The notes under the pieces: model-generated
Databases searched by the model: none
What the model was told of the DNA's origin: nothing
The model's input: the letters and a program-made list of their open reading frames with translations, nothing else
Program-made: the position numbers and the translations under genes
Shown: piece by piece, positions 4,617 through 59,080 of the stretch
How positions within the stretch are numbered: position 1 is the first letter of the stretch
How the letters are laid out: each line of letters starts with the position of its first letter
Assembly (NCBI GenBank): GCA_040387555.1
Contig: JAZKDO010000009.1
Location: 17,191 to 81,190 of the forward strand
Direction: 5' to 3'
Origin: Bacteroidota bacterium
GTDB taxonomy: Bacteria > Bacteroidota > Bacteroidia > B-17B0 > Aurantibacillaceae
DNA: 64,000 nt

Positions 4617-7154
4617 TTAGCTATTATCTTCTTTTTTCTTTTTTGCTTTTGGCTTAACTGTCTTAACTACAATTTCACTTTTCTCAGTGTCGTAATCAAT
4701 TTCGATCTGATCACCTTCAGCCAAATTGCTCTGAATGATTTCTTCAGCCATTGGATCCTCCAAATACTTCTGAATGGCACGTTTTAAAGGCCTTGCACCG
4801 TACTGAGCATCATAACCTTTTTCAACAATAAAATCTTTTGCGGCATCAGTAATTTTGATCGTGTATCCTAAATTGTTAACACGGCCAAATAAACTGTTTA
4901 ATTCAATATCAATGATTTTATGAATATCTTTTTTGTCTAAAGAGTTAAACATGATCACGTCATCAATACGATTTAAAAACTCAGGAGCAAAGGCTTTTTT
5001 CAACGCATTTTCTACAACACCTTTATTACTTTCGGCTTCATGTTCTTGTCTGGTTTGTGTACCAAAACCAACGCCTTGTCCGAAATCTTTTAACTGACGT
5101 GCTCCAATATTTGAAGTCATAATTATGATCGTATTTTTGAAATCAATTTTACGACCTAAACTGTCCGTTAACTGTCCATCATCTAATACTTGTAATAACA
5201 TATTAAATACATCCGGATGTGCTTTTTCAATCTCATCTAATAACACAACAGAGTAGGGACGACGACGTACTTTTTCAGTTAACTGGCCGCCTTCTTCATA
5301 ACCAACGTATCCCGGAGGAGCACCAATTAAACGGGTTACAGCAAATTTCTCCATGTATTCACTCATATCAATACGAATCAATGCTTCATCGTTATCGAAC
5401 AAATGCCTGGCTAAAATTTTTGCCAACTGCGTTTTACCAACACCTGTTGGGCCCAAGAAAATAAAGGAACCAATTGGTTTATTTGGATCTTTTAATCCGG
5501 CACGGTTACGCTGAATGGCTTTAACAACTTTTTTTAATGCTTCATCCTGCCCAATTACTTTACCTTGCAACAGTTCAACCATCTTCACTAATTTCTCCCC
5601 TTCATTCTGAGAAATACGCTGAACAGGAACTCCACTCATCATGGAAACAACTTCGGCAACGTTATCTTCTGTAACTGTCACACGGTTCATTTTAGTTTCT
5701 TCTTCCCATGCTTTTTTAGCTGCATCTAATTGTGCCTGTAACTGCTTTTCAGTATCACGCAATTTAGCTGCTTCTTCATATTTTTGAGAACGAACAACCT
5801 GGTTTTTTAATTCCTTAATGTCTTCCATTTTTTTCTCAAGCTCCAAAACATTTTCAGGAACATTGATATTTGTAATGTGAACTCTTGAACCAGCTTCATC
5901 TAACGCATCAATGGCTTTATCCGGTAAATGCCTGTCAGTTAAATAACGAGCAGTTAAAGTAACACAAGCTTTAATAGCTTCTGGTGTATAACTTACGTTA
6001 TGATGATCTTCGTATTTGGACTTAATGTTATTTAAGATCTGTAAAGATTCATCCTGTGTTGCAGGCTCAATGATTACTTTCTGGAAACGACGCTCTAAAG
6101 CTCCGTCTTTTTCAATATGCTGACGGAATTCATCTAATGTAGTTGCACCAATGCATTGTATTTCTCCACGAGCTAAAGCTGGTTTAAACATGTTGCTCGC
6201 ATCCATGCTTCCGCTTGCACCACCTGCACCAATAATCGTATGAATTTCATCAATGAATAAAATCACATCCGGATTTTTTTCCAACTCATTCATTACTGCT
6301 TTCATACGCTCTTCAAATTGACCACGGTATTTTGTACCAGCCACTAAAGAGGCAAGATCTAAAGTAACAACGCGTTTTCCAAATAATACACGGGATACTT
6401 TTCGCTGAATAATTCTTAAAGCCAGTCCTTCAGCAATTGCTGATTTACCCACACCGGGTTCTCCAATTAAAATTGGATTATTCTTTTTACGACGTGATAA
6501 GATCTGAGAAACACGCTCAATTTCTTTTTCACGACCAACTACGGGATCTAATTTTCCATCTTCTGCCATTTTAGTTAAATCTCTTCCGAAATTGTCTAAC
6601 ACAGGCGTTTTAGATTTTGATTCTCCAGGTTTTTTTGCAGCACCGGTTCCTGCACTTCCAAATGATTCTTCATTTTCATCATCATCACCGGTAGCAGCAT
6701 TTTCAATTTTGTGTGGGTTTTCCATATATCCTTCTAATTCTAATTTTACAGCATTATAATCTACGCCAAATTTCCCCAACGTTTTGGTCACAACATTATC
6801 ATTGTCCTTTAATATGCACATTAATAAATGTTCAGTTCCAATTTGAGGAGCTTTAAAAACTTTTGCTTCTAAATAGGTTAATTTTAACGTCTTTTCCGCC
6901 TGTTTTACTAAGGGAATATTTGCCAGATTATTTACCTTTTTCATAGAAACGGGCAAACTCTGTTCTATCTGTTTCCTAAGATCCTGGATATTGATAGCTA
7001 GGTTCTTTAATAATTTAATACCAACGCCTTCTCCATCGCGGATCATACCAAGCATTAAATGTTCAATTCCAATATAATCATGCCCTAATCTTAGTGCTTC
7101 TTCTCGGCTAAACGTTATCACGTCCTTTACGCGCTGTGAAAATTTTGCTTCCAT
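4617..7154 (-). CDS. clpC: Clp/Hsp100 AAA+ chaperone, ClpC-type (two AAA modules, Clp_N repeats, UVR-like linker)
   Basis: Walker A GEPGVGKS and GPTGVGKT, N-terminal Clp_N repeats, 845 aa. Confidence 0.8.
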
Positions 7155-13022: not shown

Positions 13023-14165
13023 ATGAAAAAAATTATTACTGTTGCGTTTTTGTCAATGACAGCAATAGCATTTAGTCAAAGCAACCAAATTCAAAATGCA
13101 ATTAATTACTTGCGTAATAAAGAACTTGATAAAGCCAAAGCATCTGCTGATGCTTCGACTGTTCATGAAAGTACAATGAACAATCCGAAAGCATGGATGT
13201 ATAGAGGAAAAGTTTACCAGGCTATTTATTTTGATACATCAAAAGTTGTTAAGGCTTATGACTTGGAATCCGCTGAAAAATCTTTAGAGAGCTACGTTAA
13301 GTGTTTAAAATTGGATAAAGAATCAGTTTATAAAGATGAAGTAAAAGGGCCATTGGTGCAGGCTACGGCGGCTGTAAGTAACAAGGCCAATTATTATAAA
13401 ATGAATAAAGAATTTGATAAAGCTTTATATTGTTATGAGTTATTGGAGCAGGCATTGCCTTATGATTTTGATCAGGGAATGAAACGGGCTAACATCACCA
13501 AAGAAAAATTGATGTATAACAAGTTTGACATGTACAAATACGCGGCAAATAAAGAAAAAACAAAAGAGTATGCGGATAAGCTGATTGATATTAAATACAA
13601 GGAACCAAAAATATATACTGATATGGTAAAACTATCCTTAATCGATAGAGATACAACGAAAGCCCTGGATTATATCGGTAAAGGAAAAATTATGTTTGAA
13701 GACAATATGGAATTAGTAAACCAGGAAATTAATATTTACCTGGCCCGTAATAAAACCAATGAGTTAAAAACCAAACTAACCGATGCAATAAATCTTTCGC
13801 CTGATAATGAAGTGTTGCATGCGATTTTGGCAAATTTATACCAAAAGACTAATGAAAATGATAAAGCCGAAGCGGAGTACTTAAAAGCATTGGAAATAAA
13901 ATCAGATTATGAAATTGCAAATTATAATCTTGGCGTTATGTATTTTAATATGGGTAACGATTGGAATGATAAATTAGGTGCTCTTCCTCCAAAAGAAACT
14001 ACTAAAGCCAAAGAATATGAAACTAAGGCTAATGAATATTTCAGAAAGGCCGTTGCAAACTTTGAAAAATCCTATGAAGTTTCCCCTGATAAAGCAACGA
14101 AACAACAATTGCGTAAATTGTTTTTGCGATTAGGCGAAACAGAAAAAGCAGACAAATATAAATAA
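13023..14165 (+). CDS. Secreted TPR-repeat protein
   Basis: ATG at 13023 gives MKKIITVAFLSMTAIAFSQ. TPR-like helical repeats follow. The track start at 12912 lies upstream of a terminator. Confidence 0.6.
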   Translation: MKKIITVAFLSMTAIAFSQSNQIQNAINYLRNKELDKAKASADASTVHESTMNNPKAWMYRGKVYQAIYFDTSKVVKAYDLESAEKSLESYVKCLKLDKESVYKDEVKGPLVQATAAVSNKANYYKMNKEFDKALYCYELLEQALPYDFDQGMKRANITKEKLMYNKFDMYKYAANKEKTKEYADKLIDIKYKEPKIYTDMVKLSLIDRDTTKALDYIGKGKIMFEDNMELVNQEINIYLARNKTNELKTKLTDAINLSPDNEVLHAILANLYQKTNENDKAEAEYLKALEIKSDYEIANYNLGVMYFNMGNDWNDKLGALPPKETTKAKEYETKANEYFRKAVANFEKSYEVSPDKATKQQLRKLFLRLGETEKADKYK

Positions 14166-50671: not shown

Positions 50672-51355
50672 ATGAAATACCTTGCTTTTTTCTCTTTGTT
50701 GGTTTGGCACTTAACTTCTTTTGCGCAGAAGTCTGTAAACCACAGACTGGTATTTCATCCCATGTTTGGGGATTCGGTTTTAAAAGAGGCGACCTATTAT
50801 CAAATCAACAGTAACGATAGTATACAAATAACTGCTTTAAAGTTTTACATTTCCGGTCTTGAACTTTCGTATCAACATAAAACTGTTTGGAAAGAAAAAA
50901 ACAGCTATCATCTTATGGATGCTTTTCAGGAAGGAAGTTTAACCCTGCCTTTACCATTACCTGCGAAATTAAAATATGACCGTGTTAAATTTAACTTAGG
51001 TATTGATAGTGTAACCAGCGTGTCCGGAGTAATGGGTGGCGATCTGGATCCAACCAAAGGAATGTATTGGACCTGGCAAAGTGGCTATATTAATTTTAAG
51101 CTGGAGGGTAACAGCAATTTATGCAAAACCCGCAATACCGAATTTCAATTTCATTTAGGGGGGTATCAGTTTCCGCATAATAACCTGCAATCTATTTTTA
51201 TGGATATGCCTCATCAAAAATTAGATGTGGTCATCGATATAAAAAAAATGGTAGGTGATTTGCCACTCACACAAATGCACCATATCATGTCGCCGGGAAA
51301 TGAAGCGATGCTTTTAACGGAAACAGTGATCAATGCCATGAGGGCTAAAAAATGA
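50672..51355 (+). CDS. MbnP-like periplasmic (copper-binding) protein
   Basis: Signal peptide, LKFYISGLEL and DPTKGMYWTWQSGYINFKLEG motifs as I recall for the MbnP family. ATGA overlap with the following di-haem peroxidase gene. Confidence 0.55.
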   Translation: MKYLAFFSLLVWHLTSFAQKSVNHRLVFHPMFGDSVLKEATYYQINSNDSIQITALKFYISGLELSYQHKTVWKEKNSYHLMDAFQEGSLTLPLPLPAKLKYDRVKFNLGIDSVTSVSGVMGGDLDPTKGMYWTWQSGYINFKLEGNSNLCKTRNTEFQFHLGGYQFPHNNLQSIFMDMPHQKLDVVIDIKKMVGDLPLTQMHHIMSPGNEAMLLTETVINAMRAKK

Positions 51356-52359
51356 AACAAAAATTTTTTATAGGATTTTTTTTGTGTGTTACCTTATGTG
51401 CCTTCCATGTAATAGATACTAAATTGTTTGTTTCTCCTGAAAACTGGCCTAAACCAAGTTACGATTTTACACAAAATCCTTTAACCTTTGAAAGCGTTCA
51501 GTTAGGCCGGCACTTATTTTACGATCCCATTCTGTCAAAAAACAATAAGATTTCCTGTGCCAGTTGTCATTCTCAATACACGGCCTTTACCCATGTGGAC
51601 CATAATTTAAGCCATGGTATCGATGATCGGATTGGCGTTAGAAATTCACCGGCTTTGATGAATCTTGCGTGGCATACATCTTTTATGTGGGATGGTGCGG
51701 TTAACCATTTGGATGTACAGGCATTAGCTCCGATTAGTCACCCGGATGAGATGGGGGAGAGTATTCAACAGGTAGTTACTAAATTAGGTCAGTCTGAAAA
51801 ATACAAAAAGTTATTCTATAAAGCTTATGGAGATAGGGTTATCACAGGTGAGCGTACTTTGAAAACCATTTCTCAATTCATGCTCACCTTAGTGAGCGCC
51901 AACTCAAAATATGACAGTGTGATGCGAAAGCAAAAACAATTTACAACACAAGAAAAAAGAGGATATGCCTTATTTCAAAAAAATTGTAATACCTGCCATA
52001 CCGAACCTTTATTTACAAACCTGCAATTTGAGAATAACGGCTTGTCCGTTGACACGACTTTAAATGATTTCGGTAGGATGAAGATTACTAAAAACAATTC
52101 CGATTCATTAAAATTTAAAGTACCTACGTTACGTAACGTTGAGTTTTCTTATCCTTACATGCATGATGGCAGGTTTAAAACGTTATCCCAGGTACTGAAA
52201 CATTATACCAATGGCGTTCATCAAAGTGAAACATTAGCGAAATCGTTAGATGCACCGATTGTGTTATCTTCCAACGATAAAGTGGATTTGGTAGCGTTTC
52301 TATTAACGCTGACTGATAAAAAGTTTTTATTTGATCCAAGATATTCTTTTCCAAAATAA
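51352..52359 (+). CDS. Di-haem cytochrome c peroxidase / MauG-family enzyme (MbnH-like)
   Basis: Two CxxCH motifs (CASCH, CNTCH), 335 aa, translationally coupled to the MbnP-like gene. Confidence 0.7.
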   Translation: MKQKFFIGFFLCVTLCAFHVIDTKLFVSPENWPKPSYDFTQNPLTFESVQLGRHLFYDPILSKNNKISCASCHSQYTAFTHVDHNLSHGIDDRIGVRNSPALMNLAWHTSFMWDGAVNHLDVQALAPISHPDEMGESIQQVVTKLGQSEKYKKLFYKAYGDRVITGERTLKTISQFMLTLVSANSKYDSVMRKQKQFTTQEKRGYALFQKNCNTCHTEPLFTNLQFENNGLSVDTTLNDFGRMKITKNNSDSLKFKVPTLRNVEFSYPYMHDGRFKTLSQVLKHYTNGVHQSETLAKSLDAPIVLSSNDKVDLVAFLLTLTDKKFLFDPRYSFPK

Positions 52360-52452
52360 TTTATTTCGCCTTTAATAACTTTTGGGCGATAGATATTATT
52401 GGTTTACCTAAAAATTTAATTTCAACTCTGCCTTGATATTACCTTTATACTA

Positions 52453-52580
52453 TATAAATTTATTTAGGGGAGTATCATAAGAGCAATCTGCGATTTAACC
52501 CTTATACTTGATCCGGGCCATACCGGTAAAAGAAAAATAAGTGTAACCCTCTCATAGAAATATGAGAGGGTATTTTTTTT
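52453..52580 (+). ncRNA. THI-box-like structured RNA unit, copy 1, with intrinsic terminator
   Basis: Preceded by TACCTTTA (52440-52447).
- P1: 52458-52465 with 52535-52542.
- P2: AGGG (52466-52469) with CCCU (52499-52502).
- P4: CUU with AAG.
- P5: CCGG with CCGG (52513-52526).
- Terminator: CCCUCUCAUA-GAAA-UAUGAGAGGG plus U8. Confidence 0.55.
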
Positions 52581-52813
52581 AGTTCAATAATGAGTCATTG
52601 TGACTAAGTGGGGTGGAAATTTTCTTAAATGGAAGCCGAGAGAAACAAAGTCACACAAGTTTCGAAGTAATTTATAGAATTAAAGAACCGACTCATGATA
52701 TCACGATTACCGTTGTCATATTTTTTACTGTTAATTTTAATTTCCGGCTATCTGTTTAATGGGTTCAACTAAAAATTAAATACCTGGGATTTTACTGATG
52801 TATCTTTACAGTA

Positions 52814-52946
52814 TATTATTTATTTAGGGAATAAGTTCACCAGAGCAATCTTAGACTTACAACCCTCATAACTTAAATCGGGATGAAATCCAATCTAAGA
52901 AAAATAAGTATAACCCTCTTGTAGCAATGCAAGGGGGTATTTTTTT
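52814..52946 (+). ncRNA. THI-box-derived structured RNA unit, copy 2 (most divergent), with intrinsic terminator
   Basis: Preceded by TATCTTTA (52801-52808).
- AGGG with CCCU is retained.
- UAAGU with ACUUA extends the helix.
- The apical hairpin AGA-GCAA-UCU is retained.
- P5 is replaced by GGAU-GAA-AUCC (52881-52891).
- Terminator: CCCUCUUGUA-GCAA-UGCAAGGGGG plus a U-run. Confidence 0.5.
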
Positions 52947-53197
52947 ATATGTATTTTCGTTGTCGATAACGACAGTACGATAATGGTATTTATAATCCAG
53001 GAGAGTAATCTATCACACGGTCACTGTCTAATTATATGTTATAAAGTCTTCTCGATGTCCATAGCAACTACTTCATAGTGTGACATCTTGATTTGTAATT
53101 TTTAATCTTCACTGTTAATTTTAATTTCTGGCTACCGATATCATCGCTTTAACTAATAATAAAAAAAACACTTTAATCTCAGCGTACCTTTATAGTA

Positions 53198-53327
53198 TAT
53201 TATTTATTTAGGGGAGGTTTTGAAAGAGAAATCTGAGAATTAAACCCTTATAACTTGATCCGGACAATACCGGCGAAAGAAAAGTAAGTATAACCCTCTT
53301 GTAGCAATACAAGGGGGTATTTTTTTT
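53198..53327 (+). ncRNA. Near-consensus THI-box (TPP riboswitch-like) aptamer with intrinsic terminator, copy 3
   Basis: Preceded by TACCTTTA (53185-53192).
- P1: 53201-53209 with 53282-53290.
- P2: AGGG with CCCU.
- P3: GGUUUU with GAAAUC.
- J3/2: CUGAGA (53233-53238).
- UAU junction, then P4 CUU with AAG.
- J4/5: GAU.
- P5: CCGG-ACAAUA-CCGG.
- J5/4: CGA.
- Terminator: 11-bp stem with GCAA loop (53293-53318) plus U8. Confidence 0.65.
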
Positions 53328-53496
53328 ATTTAATTTTCATTGTTGCGCAGTTTATGAAATCGTGAAAGAAAATAAAACATTCTTTTAAATATTGAAATCG
53401 TTTGTTTAAGCCTCAACTCTTCAATTTGACCTATCACTTATCCGTCCTTAACTAAAAATTAAAAAAACGGATCATTCCTGATGTACCTTTATAGTA

Positions 53497-53624
53497 TATT
53501 ATTTATTTAGGGAATTTTCAAAAAGTTAGTCTTTAGAAATAACCCTCATAACTTAAATCGGGGAATACCGAAATAAGAAAAATAAGTATAACCCTCTTGT
53601 AGCAATACAAGGGGGTATTTTTTT
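53497..53624 (+). ncRNA. THI-box-derived structured RNA unit, copy 4, with intrinsic terminator
   Basis: Preceded by TACCTTTA (53484-53491).
- P1: 53500-53508 with 53580-53588.
- P2: AGGG with CCCU.
- P4: CUU with AAG.
- P5: UCGG-GGAAUA-CCGA.
- J3/2 is altered to CUUUAGA, J4/5 to AAA and J5/4 to AAU.
- The terminator is identical to copy 3. Confidence 0.5.
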
Positions 53625-53728
53625 GAGTAAACGCATCCATTCATCTCAACATTGTTCCTATTCACCTAGTTAATTTTTTAATCCAGCATTCAAATTCTAT
53701 TTTTATATTTAATAAACATAAAAAACGA

Positions 53729-55102
53729 ATGCATATGATAAAAAAAATAGCAACAATGGTTCTGGTTTCTGGCAGCGCAATGGTAATAGCACAAACAAAT
53801 CCTGCCATCTCCTCATGGTTAAGAAATACTACCGGCATTACAGGTAGGCATTATGTATCGGGAAATTCTACTGCCATCACTGATGCTACGTTATCAGCAA
53901 ATGTTCAAACGGTAAAATATTCTGCAAATTATGTATACGTAAGTACCCAGGGAATTCCTGCTTATATCACCGGACCTTTTCTGGATGGTAATCCATCCCT
54001 GGCAACAAATCAGAATGCTATTTTTAAATTTCCATTAAGTCCTGCTCAAAATACCGGAACGCCCACAGCTACATCCGGAGGAAACATTGGTGTATTTATA
54101 AATGGTGTTGCTTTATTTGATTACCGCGATGGTGTTTCATGGAAAAATTCAACCAGTGCAATGGCCGGTGGCCCTTTAGGTGGCTCCGGTGATGGTGTCT
54201 GGAACCGGGATGCAATTGTAGCGGAAAAGGCAGGATTTGATTGTTCAAAAGGACATCCGGCGATGGGAAATTATCATCACCATCAAAATCCAAGCGCTTA
54301 TAATTTGGATAGAGTGGTAATCTCTAACATTTGTAATTTATATGTCGCAGATGGTTTGTATGCAATCGACAGTACTCAACATTCTCCTTTACTAGGTTAT
54401 GCCTATGATGGTTTTCCGATTTATGGTGCTTATGCCTACAAAAATTCAAACGGCACCGGTGGGATTGTAAGAATGAAATCCAGTTTCAGTTTAAGAAACA
54501 TTACAGTTAGAAATACATATTACACTGGTACTTCTGTTACAGCTGGACCAAATGTAAGTAGTACTTATCCATTAGGAACATTCAGAGAAGACTATCAATA
54601 CAATACCACATCAACCCTTACTCCTGAATATCTGGACGATCATAATGGACGCTTTTGTGTAACACCGGAATATCCGGCAGGTATTTATTGTTATTTCGCA
54701 ACGGTGGATCAAAATTGGAATTCAGCATATCCATATGCTGTTGGGCCAACTTTTTACGGAACAAAAGTAGCTGTGAAAGTGACATCAATAACTGAAACGG
54801 TGACTAGCTACACAGGAACTTCCACCGGAACTGGTGAATCAGAAAAAGAAAATTTTAGTATGTTAGTATATCCAAATCCGGCAAGTGACTTAGTGGCCAT
54901 TCAGTTAAATAATATAACAAAAGATAACCTGAGCGTGGAATTGTTTGATATTACTGGAAAGCTAGTTCAAAAAACAATGATATACCAAGGGAGCACCATC
55001 GCTTATTTTGATACAAGAACGCTTTATAGCGGAGAGTACATCATTAGAATCCATCAAGGCACCATGACGCAGACTAAGAAAATTCTGATCGAAAAACAAT
55101 AA
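53729..55102 (+). CDS. YHYH-domain secreted protein with T9SS type A C-terminal sorting domain
   Basis: Signal peptide, GNYHHHQNP, GYAYDGFPIYG and DDHNGRF motifs typical of the YHYH family. The CTD reads VYPNPASDLVAIQL...SGEYIIRI. Confidence 0.6.
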   Translation: MHMIKKIATMVLVSGSAMVIAQTNPAISSWLRNTTGITGRHYVSGNSTAITDATLSANVQTVKYSANYVYVSTQGIPAYITGPFLDGNPSLATNQNAIFKFPLSPAQNTGTPTATSGGNIGVFINGVALFDYRDGVSWKNSTSAMAGGPLGGSGDGVWNRDAIVAEKAGFDCSKGHPAMGNYHHHQNPSAYNLDRVVISNICNLYVADGLYAIDSTQHSPLLGYAYDGFPIYGAYAYKNSNGTGGIVRMKSSFSLRNITVRNTYYTGTSVTAGPNVSSTYPLGTFREDYQYNTTSTLTPEYLDDHNGRFCVTPEYPAGIYCYFATVDQNWNSAYPYAVGPTFYGTKVAVKVTSITETVTSYTGTSTGTGESEKENFSMLVYPNPASDLVAIQLNNITKDNLSVELFDITGKLVQKTMIYQGSTIAYFDTRTLYSGEYIIRIHQGTMTQTKKILIEKQ

Positions 55103-55122
55103 TTTAATTTAAAGGAATAACA

Positions 55123-55149
55123 AGCCCGCTTTGTAAAGAGCGGGTTTTT
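55123..55149 (+). terminator. Intrinsic terminator after the YHYH gene
   Basis: agcccgct-ttgtaa-agagcggg followed by T5. Confidence 0.7.
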
Positions 55150-55319
55150 GCATTAATCGGCAGAGATAAGTGAAAAAAGCTTTTTTCTGCTACGTTTAAT
55201 CTTTTCAGCATGATGGCTCTGCCTTTATATATTCAAATTTAGACTTTTCATTCCAATTTTTTATATAAAGAAAAATAATCCGTTTTAATTTGTGACTTGA
55301 CTTAATAAAAGGAAACTTT

Positions 55320-55327
55320 TATATTTG
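55320..55327 (+). promoter_or_regulatory. -7 box TATATTTG
   Basis: Exact TAnnTTTG match upstream of the second TPR-PP2C gene. Confidence 0.4.
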
Positions 55328-55421
55328 AACAGATCGTTTTAAATTGTCATAAATCCAAAATACAATTACACCTTTGCAGCAGGTTCATATTTGTTCCCAG
55401 TATAAAATAAAAAGGGTTTTC

Positions 55422-58782: not shown

Positions 58783-58900
58783 TTGGGCGTGCCGGCGAAA
58801 GAGACAGCGCCGTCAGGGTTTACGCTCCAATCTTTCGTCTGCGCTTCGGCTCCGCTCAACGCCCAACGAAAGGATTTTCACTTCAATCCTTCACGCGGGT
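58783..58900. repeat. GC-rich structured island in an AT-rich intergenic region
   Basis: ttgggcgt (58783-58790) pairs with acgcccaa (58859-58866). Nested cggcg/cgccg pair (58793-97 with 58808-12). Hairpin aaggatt-N8-aatcctt (58870-58891). Ends in tcacgcgg. Confidence 0.5.
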
Positions 58901-59080
58901 TTTACGTTCAAATATAGTTGATAATACAATTTTGAAATACAATTACATGAAGGATATAAAGTAGATATACTTTTGCTGGTTCGCCGAATATGGTTACTGA
59001 GATTGTCTCAGTTATCGAAGAGCTTGCAAAGAATTGAATCCTCCATCTGCTTTATAAATACTGCTCAAATTTTAATGTAG

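Follow-up and report, generated by a model that had tools for sequence, protein, structure and literature searches.

A 64,000-nt stretch of the genome of a Bacteroidota bacterium of the family Aurantibacillaceae (assembly GCA_040387555.1, contig JAZKDO010000009.1, positions 17,191 to 81,190 of the forward strand), referred to here as the window, contains four co-oriented RNA cassettes arranged head to tail at 52358-53624 (+), between a gene for an MbnH-like protein and a gene for a YHYH-domain protein with a type IX secretion system (T9SS) sorting tail. The host genome is AT-rich (35% G+C). Each cassette comprised a conserved, A/T-rich upstream region of about 80-95 nt, a P1 helix, a three-way junction resembling the THI-box, or thiamine pyrophosphate (TPP) riboswitch, and a terminator. 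The four-copy repeat had been recognised in a preliminary description of the window and is real, but its span was drawn too short: the repeat unit includes the 80-95 nt upstream of each aptamer, and the feature therefore starts near 52358. Judged by covariance model and sequence comparison, copy 3 is a member of the TPP riboswitch family (RF00059), while copies 1, 2 and 4 are clearly derived from a TPP riboswitch. The three variants appear to be preserved and not decaying, and so have probably gained a different role.

Minimum-free-energy folds placed an aptamer and a terminator side by side in all four copies, and P1 (9 bp, A-U and G-U pairs), P2 (AGGG/CCCU), P4 (CUU/AAG), a hairpin in the P5 position and the terminator were common to all of them, as described previously. 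Each cassette ended in a perfect 11-bp terminator hairpin followed by U7-8; the terminator scan found these four where 0.8 would be expected, and the upstream box TAYCTTTAYASTATAT matched the window four times, against an expectation of 0.03. In all cassettes, P1 began 7 nt after an octamer of the form TAYCTTTA. The promoters of Bacteroidota carry a -7 element with the consensus TAnnTTTG, which the TACCTTTA box resembles, and the position of this box did not vary, every cassette in each of the genomes having it 7 nt before P1; a TPP unit on an unrelated metagenome contig (L088) had a consensus -7 box, TAAGTTTG, likewise 7 nt from P1. We infer that the TACCTTTA box is a Bacteroidota -7 promoter element. 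Between species the upstream boxes were about 78% identical, while the remaining spacer was unalignable, and because of this contrast the cassettes look like autonomous transcription units, each specifying an RNA of about 125-135 nt. The spacers between units were 156-238 nt long. Their first ~130 nt after terminators 1-3 (52581-52718, 52947-53102 and 53328-53447) are unique sequence, showing no similarity to each other, to the rest of the window or to any locus fetched for the analysis. One of those loci, L082, had no counterparts of these parts in its own spacers, and the short open reading frames (ORFs) of 48 and 31 aa found there in the window lie in sequence that the L082 array does not have.

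Assignment to the TPP family was judged against the gathering score of the RF00059 covariance model in Rfam, 54.3 bits. Copy 3 (63.1 bits) was the only copy in the window to exceed it, in the same range as the canonical copies of relatives (62.3-67.0 bits). Copy 1 (43.3 bits) and copy 4 (33.7 bits) fell below, as did the copy 1 orthologue in L082 (41.9 bits), and copy 2 gave no RF00059 match at E<=10; with a model made for this analysis (R1), copy 2 scored 95.1 bits. The variants also depart from the canonical ligand pocket. In the thiM and thiC crystal structures, a CG dinucleotide 3' of P5 (J5/4) contacts the pyrophosphate through Mg2+. The pyrophosphate pocket is the P4/P5 interface, while J3-2 forms the pyrimidine pocket (U39-G40-A41-G42-A43), where G40 hydrogen-bonds the ring and G42 and A43 stack on it (PMC2018614). 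All six canonical units had CUGAGA, GAU and CG without exception. The strings given for the window in the preliminary description were exact for all four copies: J3/2 is CUGAGA in copy 3 (53233-53238), CUGCGA in copy 1 (52488-52493), CUUAGA in copy 2 (52850-52855) and CUUUAGA in copy 4 (53531-53537), and its J4/5 and J5/4 entries were correct as well (GAU/CGA in copy 3, GAU/UAA in copy 1, AAA/AAU in copy 4), including the different hairpin, GGAU-GAA-AUCC, that occupies the P5 position of copy 2. The J5/4 dinucleotide is UA in copy 1 and its L082 orthologue, AA in copy 4, and UC in the re-formed hairpin of copy 2. Further changes accompany these: the P3 arm of copy 1 is remodelled (AUC/GAU plus AGA-GCAA-UCU), copy 2 has GGGAAU and a P4 of CUUA/UAAG, and copy 4 has AA in J4/5 as well as J5/4, a P5 of UCGG/CCGA and the same P4 as copy 2.

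Over nine units, 94% of cells in the P1, P2, P4 and P5 scaffold were paired, and each variant retained 11-12 of the 12 pairs of P2, P4 and P5. The canonical P3 is broken in the variants, with 75% of its cells paired overall. Given the loss of the J5/4 CG in all of them, canonical TPP recognition by copies 1, 2 and 4 is unlikely, and as they score below the threshold and lack two defining features of the pocket, they were not filed as TPP riboswitches. Presumably, the canonical response to TPP has been lost in these copies. The long imperfect P2-P3 hairpin that had been proposed for these three copies can indeed form, but it is not specific to them; copy 3 and the other canonical copies can adopt it too (AGA-GAAA-UCU), and the energies of the arm were no better than those of shuffled sequences (z from +0.07 to -2.07), so that it does not distinguish the variants. 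Literature searches for described THI-box pocket variants returned nothing specific.

A measure of the selection acting on copy 1 came from L082, one of the related or comparison loci fetched for the analysis (labelled L082-L096), among which the closer relatives have YHYH proteins 78-84% identical to that of the window. At four-fold degenerate sites of five flanking genes, the window and L082 were only 27-40% identical, which amounts to saturation, and at this distance copy 1 was 91% identical to the first L082 cassette (L082-a, 5238-5366), while the identity of copy 3 to L082-b and L082-c, the canonical copies of that array, was 92% (core 93-96%). Copy 1 and L082-a are more closely related to each other than to any other unit and each stands first in its array, which makes them orthologues (the 'u1-type'). 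Across 104 alignment columns that are invariant in the five canonical copies of the sub-clade, copy 1 and L082-a each differed at 13. Seven positions carried identical derived states in the two, including the J5/4 change from CG to UA, and also U24A, U26C and A45U, by which a possible U-A/U-A/U.G pairing in the basal part of the P3 arm becomes A-U/U-A/C-G; three positions were non-canonical in both but with different bases, and seven were non-canonical in one only, including A41C (window) and G40A (L082) in J3/2. The J3/2 sequence is thus CUGCGA in copy 1 and CUAAGA in L082-a, with GC versus AA at positions 40/41, and as these changes are private to each orthologue, the u1 ancestor probably still had CUGAGA. 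The two also differed at one L5 position (C versus G) and in J2/4. No difference between them broke P1, P2, P4, P5 or the terminator, the loops and junctions being the most variable parts, and in the u1-type G42-A43 can join a Watson-Crick helix (AUC/GAU).

Conservation of the variant pocket, which the preliminary description had put forward as the means of telling a new specificity from decay, was therefore divided, the J5/4 UA and the base of P3 being kept, and J3/2 positions 40/41, the L5 position and J2/4 not. Its sign of decay was variant positions left unconserved together with mismatched helices; some variant positions are unconserved, and the helices are intact. It held that the sequence alone cannot separate a new ligand from decay; the comparative data now do so in part, disfavouring simple decay for all three variants without establishing a new ligand. 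On this comparison copy 1 is a conserved, distinct and older paralogue type found across species, and not a pseudogene.

Copies 2 and 4 were found in the window genome only, and no orthologues of either were found. They share ten derived states, including GGGAAU, U to C in J2/4, U to A in J4/5, G40U, a fourth P4 pair changed from G.A to A-U and a P5 pair changed from C-G to U-A, and so descend from one ancestor (the 'B-type'). The two are distinct in the length of J3/2 and in P3, P5, L5 and J5/4. Core identity was 64-72%, both between the two and with every other unit, while their P1 3' strands and terminators were 94-98% identical to those of copy 3, flanks that gene conversion could have supplied. 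About 35% of core positions are substituted relative to copy 3 (26/69 in copy 4 and 24/70 in copy 2), and yet the pairs of P2, P4 and P5 were intact at 12/12 in copy 4 (P=0.0002) and 11/12 in copy 2 (P=0.004), where about 6 would be expected under random substitution. Changes have been kept out of the helices or compensated within them, which argues against neutral decay of these copies. Among ten units, the terminator helix showed compensatory double changes at four pairs (CUUGUA/UACAAG versus CUCAUA/UAUGAG), and P5 at one.

The array is not general to YHYH loci, as 80 GTDB loci with YHYH orthologues (61-74% identity) contained no cassette when searched with a model built from the four copies. 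In L084, L089, L091, L093 and L095, the gap between mbnH and the YHYH gene is only 55-75 nt, without a cassette. L094 and L096 have one canonical cassette each at this site (Rfam TPP, 67.0 and 63.4 bits), and L082 has three, one u1-type and two canonical. L087 has at least one, its contig starting inside a cassette terminator, and L086, which has lost the mbnH neighbourhood, has none, while retaining the YHYH gene and its ~100-nt leader. Copy number at the mbnH-YHYH site is accordingly 0, 1, 3 or 4 among relatives, and variant copies are known from two genomes, with two sequences per variant type. The same three L082 cassettes were present in an independent assembly, L083, which speaks against assembly error as the source of such arrays. 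The MbnH look-up yielded a Logan contig that matches the window exactly and breaks inside copy 2, as expected of a repeat. In all five cassette-bearing genomes the cassettes are co-oriented with, and directly upstream of, the YHYH gene. Every fully readable array holds at least one canonical TPP aptamer, suggesting that the cassette was amplified in tandem from a single TPP cassette. At its simplest, the history would be that one promoter-riboswitch-terminator cassette was inserted between mbnH and the YHYH gene in one Bacteroidota sub-clade and then multiplied in tandem, as a lineage-specific event. A metagenome scan with the pattern ATTTAGGGRAN{20,45}ACCCTN{3,6}ACTTRAWYCGG returned one locus only, L088, and no variant copies. 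The L088 unit (13790-13928) is a single canonical TPP riboswitch in another context, with its own terminator; no ORF lay within 150 nt after it, on a sequence that ends 196 nt past the unit.

Several observations on these loci may be added. At least four genomes of one sub-clade, among them those of the window, L082, L094 and L096, have a canonical TPP riboswitch immediately ahead of a YHYH/T9SS gene. In the sister clade, the YHYH gene is normally in an operon with genes for an extracytoplasmic function (ECF) sigma factor, MbnP and MbnH, which are copper-associated. The YHYH gene of L096 (1904-2638) seems to be split, with a short ORF running from the normal ATG and then a called fragment of 208 aa, the result of either a frameshift (pseudogene) or an assembly error. 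In L094 (1-720), the MbnH-like ORF runs 19 codons past the usual ...FSFPK end and into the cassette's upstream boxes, so that the conserved upstream region of this cassette overlaps the annotated coding end.

Table 1. Features of the cassette array and its surroundings; coordinates are those of the window unless a locus is named.
Feature	Coordinates	Strand	Evidence or remark
MbnP-family gene	50672..51355	+	Pfam PF20243 1.7e-38; NCBIfam MbnP_like_WxW weak; upstream operon with MbnH-like gene
MbnH-like di-haem cytochrome c peroxidase gene (left flank of array)	51352..52359	+	Pfam PF03150 7e-55
Cassette 1 conserved upstream region, box 1 TTTTGGGCGATAG, box 2 TTTACCTAAAAATTTAA	52358..52439	+	repeat families D2, D4; aligns with other cassettes and with L082 cassettes
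Cassette 1 box TACCTTTA, putative -7 promoter element	52440..52447	+	box matches and distance to P1 (in text)
Copy 1 aptamer-like fold, u1-type variant	52458..52543	+	Rfam TPP model (score in text); fold; orthologue L082 5238-5332
Copy 1 terminator, ACCCUCUCAUA-GAAA-UAUGAGAGGGU + U8	52546..52580	+	terminator scan; compensatory changes versus copies 2-4
Cassette 2 conserved upstream region, box TATCTTTA at 52801-52808	52719..52808	+	repeat and alignment
Copy 2 aptamer-like fold, B-type variant	52817..52910	+	no Rfam TPP match at E<=10; own model R1 (score in text); fold
Copy 2 terminator	52913..52946	+	terminator scan
Cassette 3 conserved upstream region, box TACCTTTA at 53185-53192	53103..53192	+	repeat and alignment
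Copy 3 canonical TPP riboswitch aptamer (CUGAGA, GAU, CG)	53201..53290	+	Rfam RF00059 (score in text)
Copy 3 terminator	53293..53327	+	terminator scan
Cassette 4 conserved upstream region, box 2, TACCTTTA at 53484-53491, box 1 degenerate	53448..53491	+	repeat and alignment
Copy 4 aptamer-like fold, B-type variant	53500..53588	+	Rfam TPP model (score in text); fold
Copy 4 terminator	53591..53624	+	terminator scan
Leader before YHYH gene with TTCACCTAGTTAAT and TAnnTTTA box TATTTTTA (53698-53705), 29 nt before ATG	53625..53734	+	putative promoter
YHYH-domain protein gene with T9SS sorting tail	53735..55102	+	Pfam PF14240 4.2e-55, PF18962
YHYH leader homologues	L082 5873-6000; L086 2320-2419; L087 100-204; L094 1070-1166; L096 1795-1904		alignment

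The genes around the array (Table 1) gave no indication of a link to thiamine. The MbnH-like protein matched NCBIfam TIGR04039 (MbnH family) at 8.6e-66, under the curated cut-off of that family, and the YHYH gene is followed by a gene for a TPR-SpoIIE protein. Proteins 100% identical to the window YHYH protein (a 455-aa entry, P0001) and to MbnH are annotated in a Bacteroidota metagenome-assembled genome at NCBI; an exact look-up of the window YHYH protein with the upstream ATG included gave no match. A sequence search of the PDB with the YHYH protein matched the T9SS tail only, and its AlphaFold2 model, with a mean predicted local distance difference test (pLDDT) of 40, was too poor for use. 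No thiamine-pathway gene was recognised in the neighbourhood of the array, literature searches for YHYH together with thiamine returned nothing specific, and we know of no thiamine connection for the YHYH/MbnPH (copper-associated) neighbourhood. The leader of the YHYH gene, with the pattern TTCCATCTCAAAAT...TTCACCTCGATTATTTTTATGTT...TTACTTTTATAAA, has homologues that are 80-87% conserved among L082, L087, L094 and L096, the window version being more diverged. Its TAnnTTTA box lies 25-45 nt upstream of the YHYH ATG, and this leader may be a separate promoter or operator.

How the array might act can be outlined as follows, although its regulatory role is inferred only, from sequence. In each cassette a promoter-like region would be followed, a few nucleotides past the presumed transcription start, by an aptamer and a strong intrinsic terminator, so that the cassette would mainly yield a terminated RNA of about 125-135 nt, with a read-through fraction heading towards the YHYH gene. 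Copy 3 would make this fraction TPP-dependent, acting as an attenuator, whereas selection would have maintained copies 1, 2 and 4 as structured modules of promoter plus terminator that are insensitive to TPP, which may stop read-through from mbnPH and set the level of transcription entering the sensor and the YHYH gene. This is the reading that we prefer, tentatively, and for the variants ligand-blind modules, or modules of altered affinity, are favoured over a clean new specificity.

A number of points weigh against it. Thermodynamic folding, whether of truncated transcripts or with one or the other strand of the terminator blocked, predicted no antiterminator for any unit, the canonical ones included, which leaves TPP-dependent read-through without a visible structural basis. 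Among the cassettes of the window, L082, L094, L096 and L088, every fold kept aptamer and terminator structurally independent. Three pairings found by hand, the P2 3' strand with the terminator 3' strand, GAGGUU with AACC(C)UC, and the leader ACCUUU with GGGGGU, were rejected, since none covaried with the terminator alleles. In the window, the last cassette before the YHYH gene is the variant copy 4, and constitutive termination there would cut the TPP sensor off from the gene. The YHYH gene may in any case be independent of the array, as it has its own leader with a TAnnTTTA box, kept cassette-free in L086. A ligand-blind module would have no obvious need of P2, P4 and P5, and their preservation suggests that the folded RNA has a function in its own right. 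The variants, moreover, come from two genomes only.

Of the other explanations, that copies 1, 2 and 4 are decaying pseudo-riboswitches, non-functional duplicates under neutral drift, would account for their scores below the Rfam threshold and their lost contact residues, for the presence of copies 2 and 4 in this genome only, and, through recent duplication or gene conversion, for the 94-98% identity of the P1 and terminator of these copies to copy 3. It is highly improbable nonetheless: the seven shared derived states and the 91% identity of copy 1 to its orthologue at saturated divergence mean that decay of this copy is largely refuted by the comparison, in copies 2 and 4 the helices were spared substitutions or had them compensated, and all four terminators are perfect hairpins. 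Still harder to sustain is an ordinary pseudo-cooperative array, in which all four copies bind TPP and sharpen the dose-response of the YHYH gene. Tandem TPP riboswitches are common, with 213 cases including one triplet (PMC9481103), and in the L082 array two canonical copies follow one another. In the known example at Bacillus anthracis tenA (Welz & Breaker 2007, cited in PMC9481103), aptamer-plus-terminator units are also found in series, co-oriented and in variable copy number upstream of one ORF; here, in contrast, there are four units of which one is canonical, and each has promoter-like upstream sequence. Three of the four window copies lack the J5/4 CG, the canonical J3/2 and the canonical P3, and a single ligand for all units is unlikely because the pockets differ. 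A single leader is also doubtful, since each copy has its own conserved promoter-like box and the units, separated by 156-238 nt rather than by short linkers, look like separate transcription units.

Each cassette could instead be a stand-alone gene for a riboswitch-derived small RNA (sRNA), about 130 nt long, that acts in trans or serves as a decoy, with copy number varying as in other multi-copy sRNA families. Terminated riboswitch transcripts are known to act in trans in Listeria (SreA/SreB), and sRNA genes in tandem, such as Listeria LhrC1-4 and Nostoc NsiR1, likewise consist of a promoter, a short structured RNA and a terminator arranged head to tail, with copy number varying between relatives, but are not derived from riboswitches. 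The conserved upstream region and strong terminator of every cassette, the absence of a predicted antiterminator, purifying selection over the whole u1-type cassette with its upstream box, and a YHYH gene that has its own promoter-like leader and survives array-free in L086 would all suit this explanation. No target or seed can be proposed, however: a conserved single-stranded 'seed' was not evident, and the loops and junctions of the u1-type vary most. The position of the cassettes directly upstream of the YHYH gene, in the same orientation in five genomes, has the look of a cis-element, and the canonical copies keep every TPP-contact residue, implying that ligand sensing matters, so that the sRNA explanation is considered unlikely. 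A change of ligand, with copies 1, 2 and/or 4 sensing thiamine, thiamine monophosphate (TMP), hydroxymethylpyrimidine (HMP) or another pyrimidine, and the array serving as a multi-input attenuator, is rated marginally higher but still unlikely, and these two are the chief rivals of the preferred reading. The variants are under purifying or structural selection, the J5/4 change from CG to UA and compensatory remodelling of the P3 base (U24A with A45U, and U26C) are common to copy 1 and L082-a, and J3/2 is one substitution away from CUGAGA in both, which suggests a residual constraint on the pyrimidine side; moreover, thiamin or TMP is preferred by some of the RNAs assigned to the TPP riboswitch class (Sherlock et al. 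2022, PMC9481103). On the other hand, the u1 orthologues disagree at J3/2 positions 40/41, where G40 is a ligand-bonding base, at the L5 position and in J2/4, and absorption of G42-A43 into the AUC/GAU helix would remove the intercalation site. Copies 2 and 4 show no common pocket, differing in J3/2 length, P3, P5, L5 and J5/4, no thiamine-pathway gene is nearby, and each variant type is represented by two sequences. It is accordingly doubtful that copies 1, 2 and 4 are one or two unrecognised THI-box-derived aptamer types sensing a compound other than TPP. If they were, the copy 1 type could read a ligand without pyrophosphate contacts, and the locus would be a natural four-unit, multi-input RNA array, born of tandem duplication and caught diversifying.

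Set against known systems, copy 3 resembles other members of RF00059 in its P1-P5 three-way junction, its CUGAGA, the GAU and CG around P5 and the terminator that follows, but differs from them in that the gene downstream is a YHYH/T9SS gene beside mbnPH and no known thiamine gene, and in having no predicted antiterminator. Copies 1, 2 and 4 keep the scaffold of this class (P1, P2, P4 and the P5 hairpin), while J5/4 CG, J3/2 and the canonical P3 are altered or lost. Helices kept with junction residues replaced, and J5/4 UA conserved in two species, recall the variant riboswitch classes, such as guanine to 2'-deoxyguanosine (2'-dG) or xanthine, the ykkC subtypes, and the TPP-class RNAs favouring thiamin or TMP (PMC9481103). 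In those classes, however, the pocket residues are invariant over many representatives and gene context shifts coherently, whereas here the pocket residues partly differ between the sole two orthologues and the gene context is unchanged. The TPP/HMP pyrophosphate (HMP-PP) tandem logic gates (Atilho et al. 2019, PMC6478431) also place a thiamine-pathway riboswitch in series with a second, different sensor, but the HMP-PP aptamer (thiS motif), a small hairpin embedded in the terminator, has no relation to the THI-box fold, and an Rfam scan of 52300-53800 gave no match to it at E<=10.

One canonical sensor among three paralogues that keep the scaffold but have altered pockets, each with a promoter-like region and a terminator, was not described in the literature searched. 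Compared with the known tandems, what differs is the number of units (four, one of them canonical), their own promoter-like regions, a pocket-altered type shared across species, and the YHYH/MbnPH context, through which the locus links a TPP sensor to a copper-associated neighbourhood. Relatives with 0, 1, 3 and 4 cassettes provide a rare natural series for the duplication and divergence of a riboswitch, and a pocket-defective THI-box fold that is under selection must do something, whether as a sensor of a new ligand, a ligand-independent attenuator or a trans-acting RNA.

Two further observations concern the surroundings of the array. In the window, only a 272-nt gap (55103-55373) separates the YHYH gene from the TPR-SpoIIE gene, and in L082, L086 and L087 a convergent gene of the LOG family (lysine-decarboxylase-like) lies between the two. 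A Flavo-1 RNA (RF01705) was detected at 58807-58905 (-), between two DEAD-box helicase genes, with 43.5 bits against a gathering score of 42, and this RNA was also found in L087 (5960-6044), at the syntenic place, and in L089 (7494-7574).

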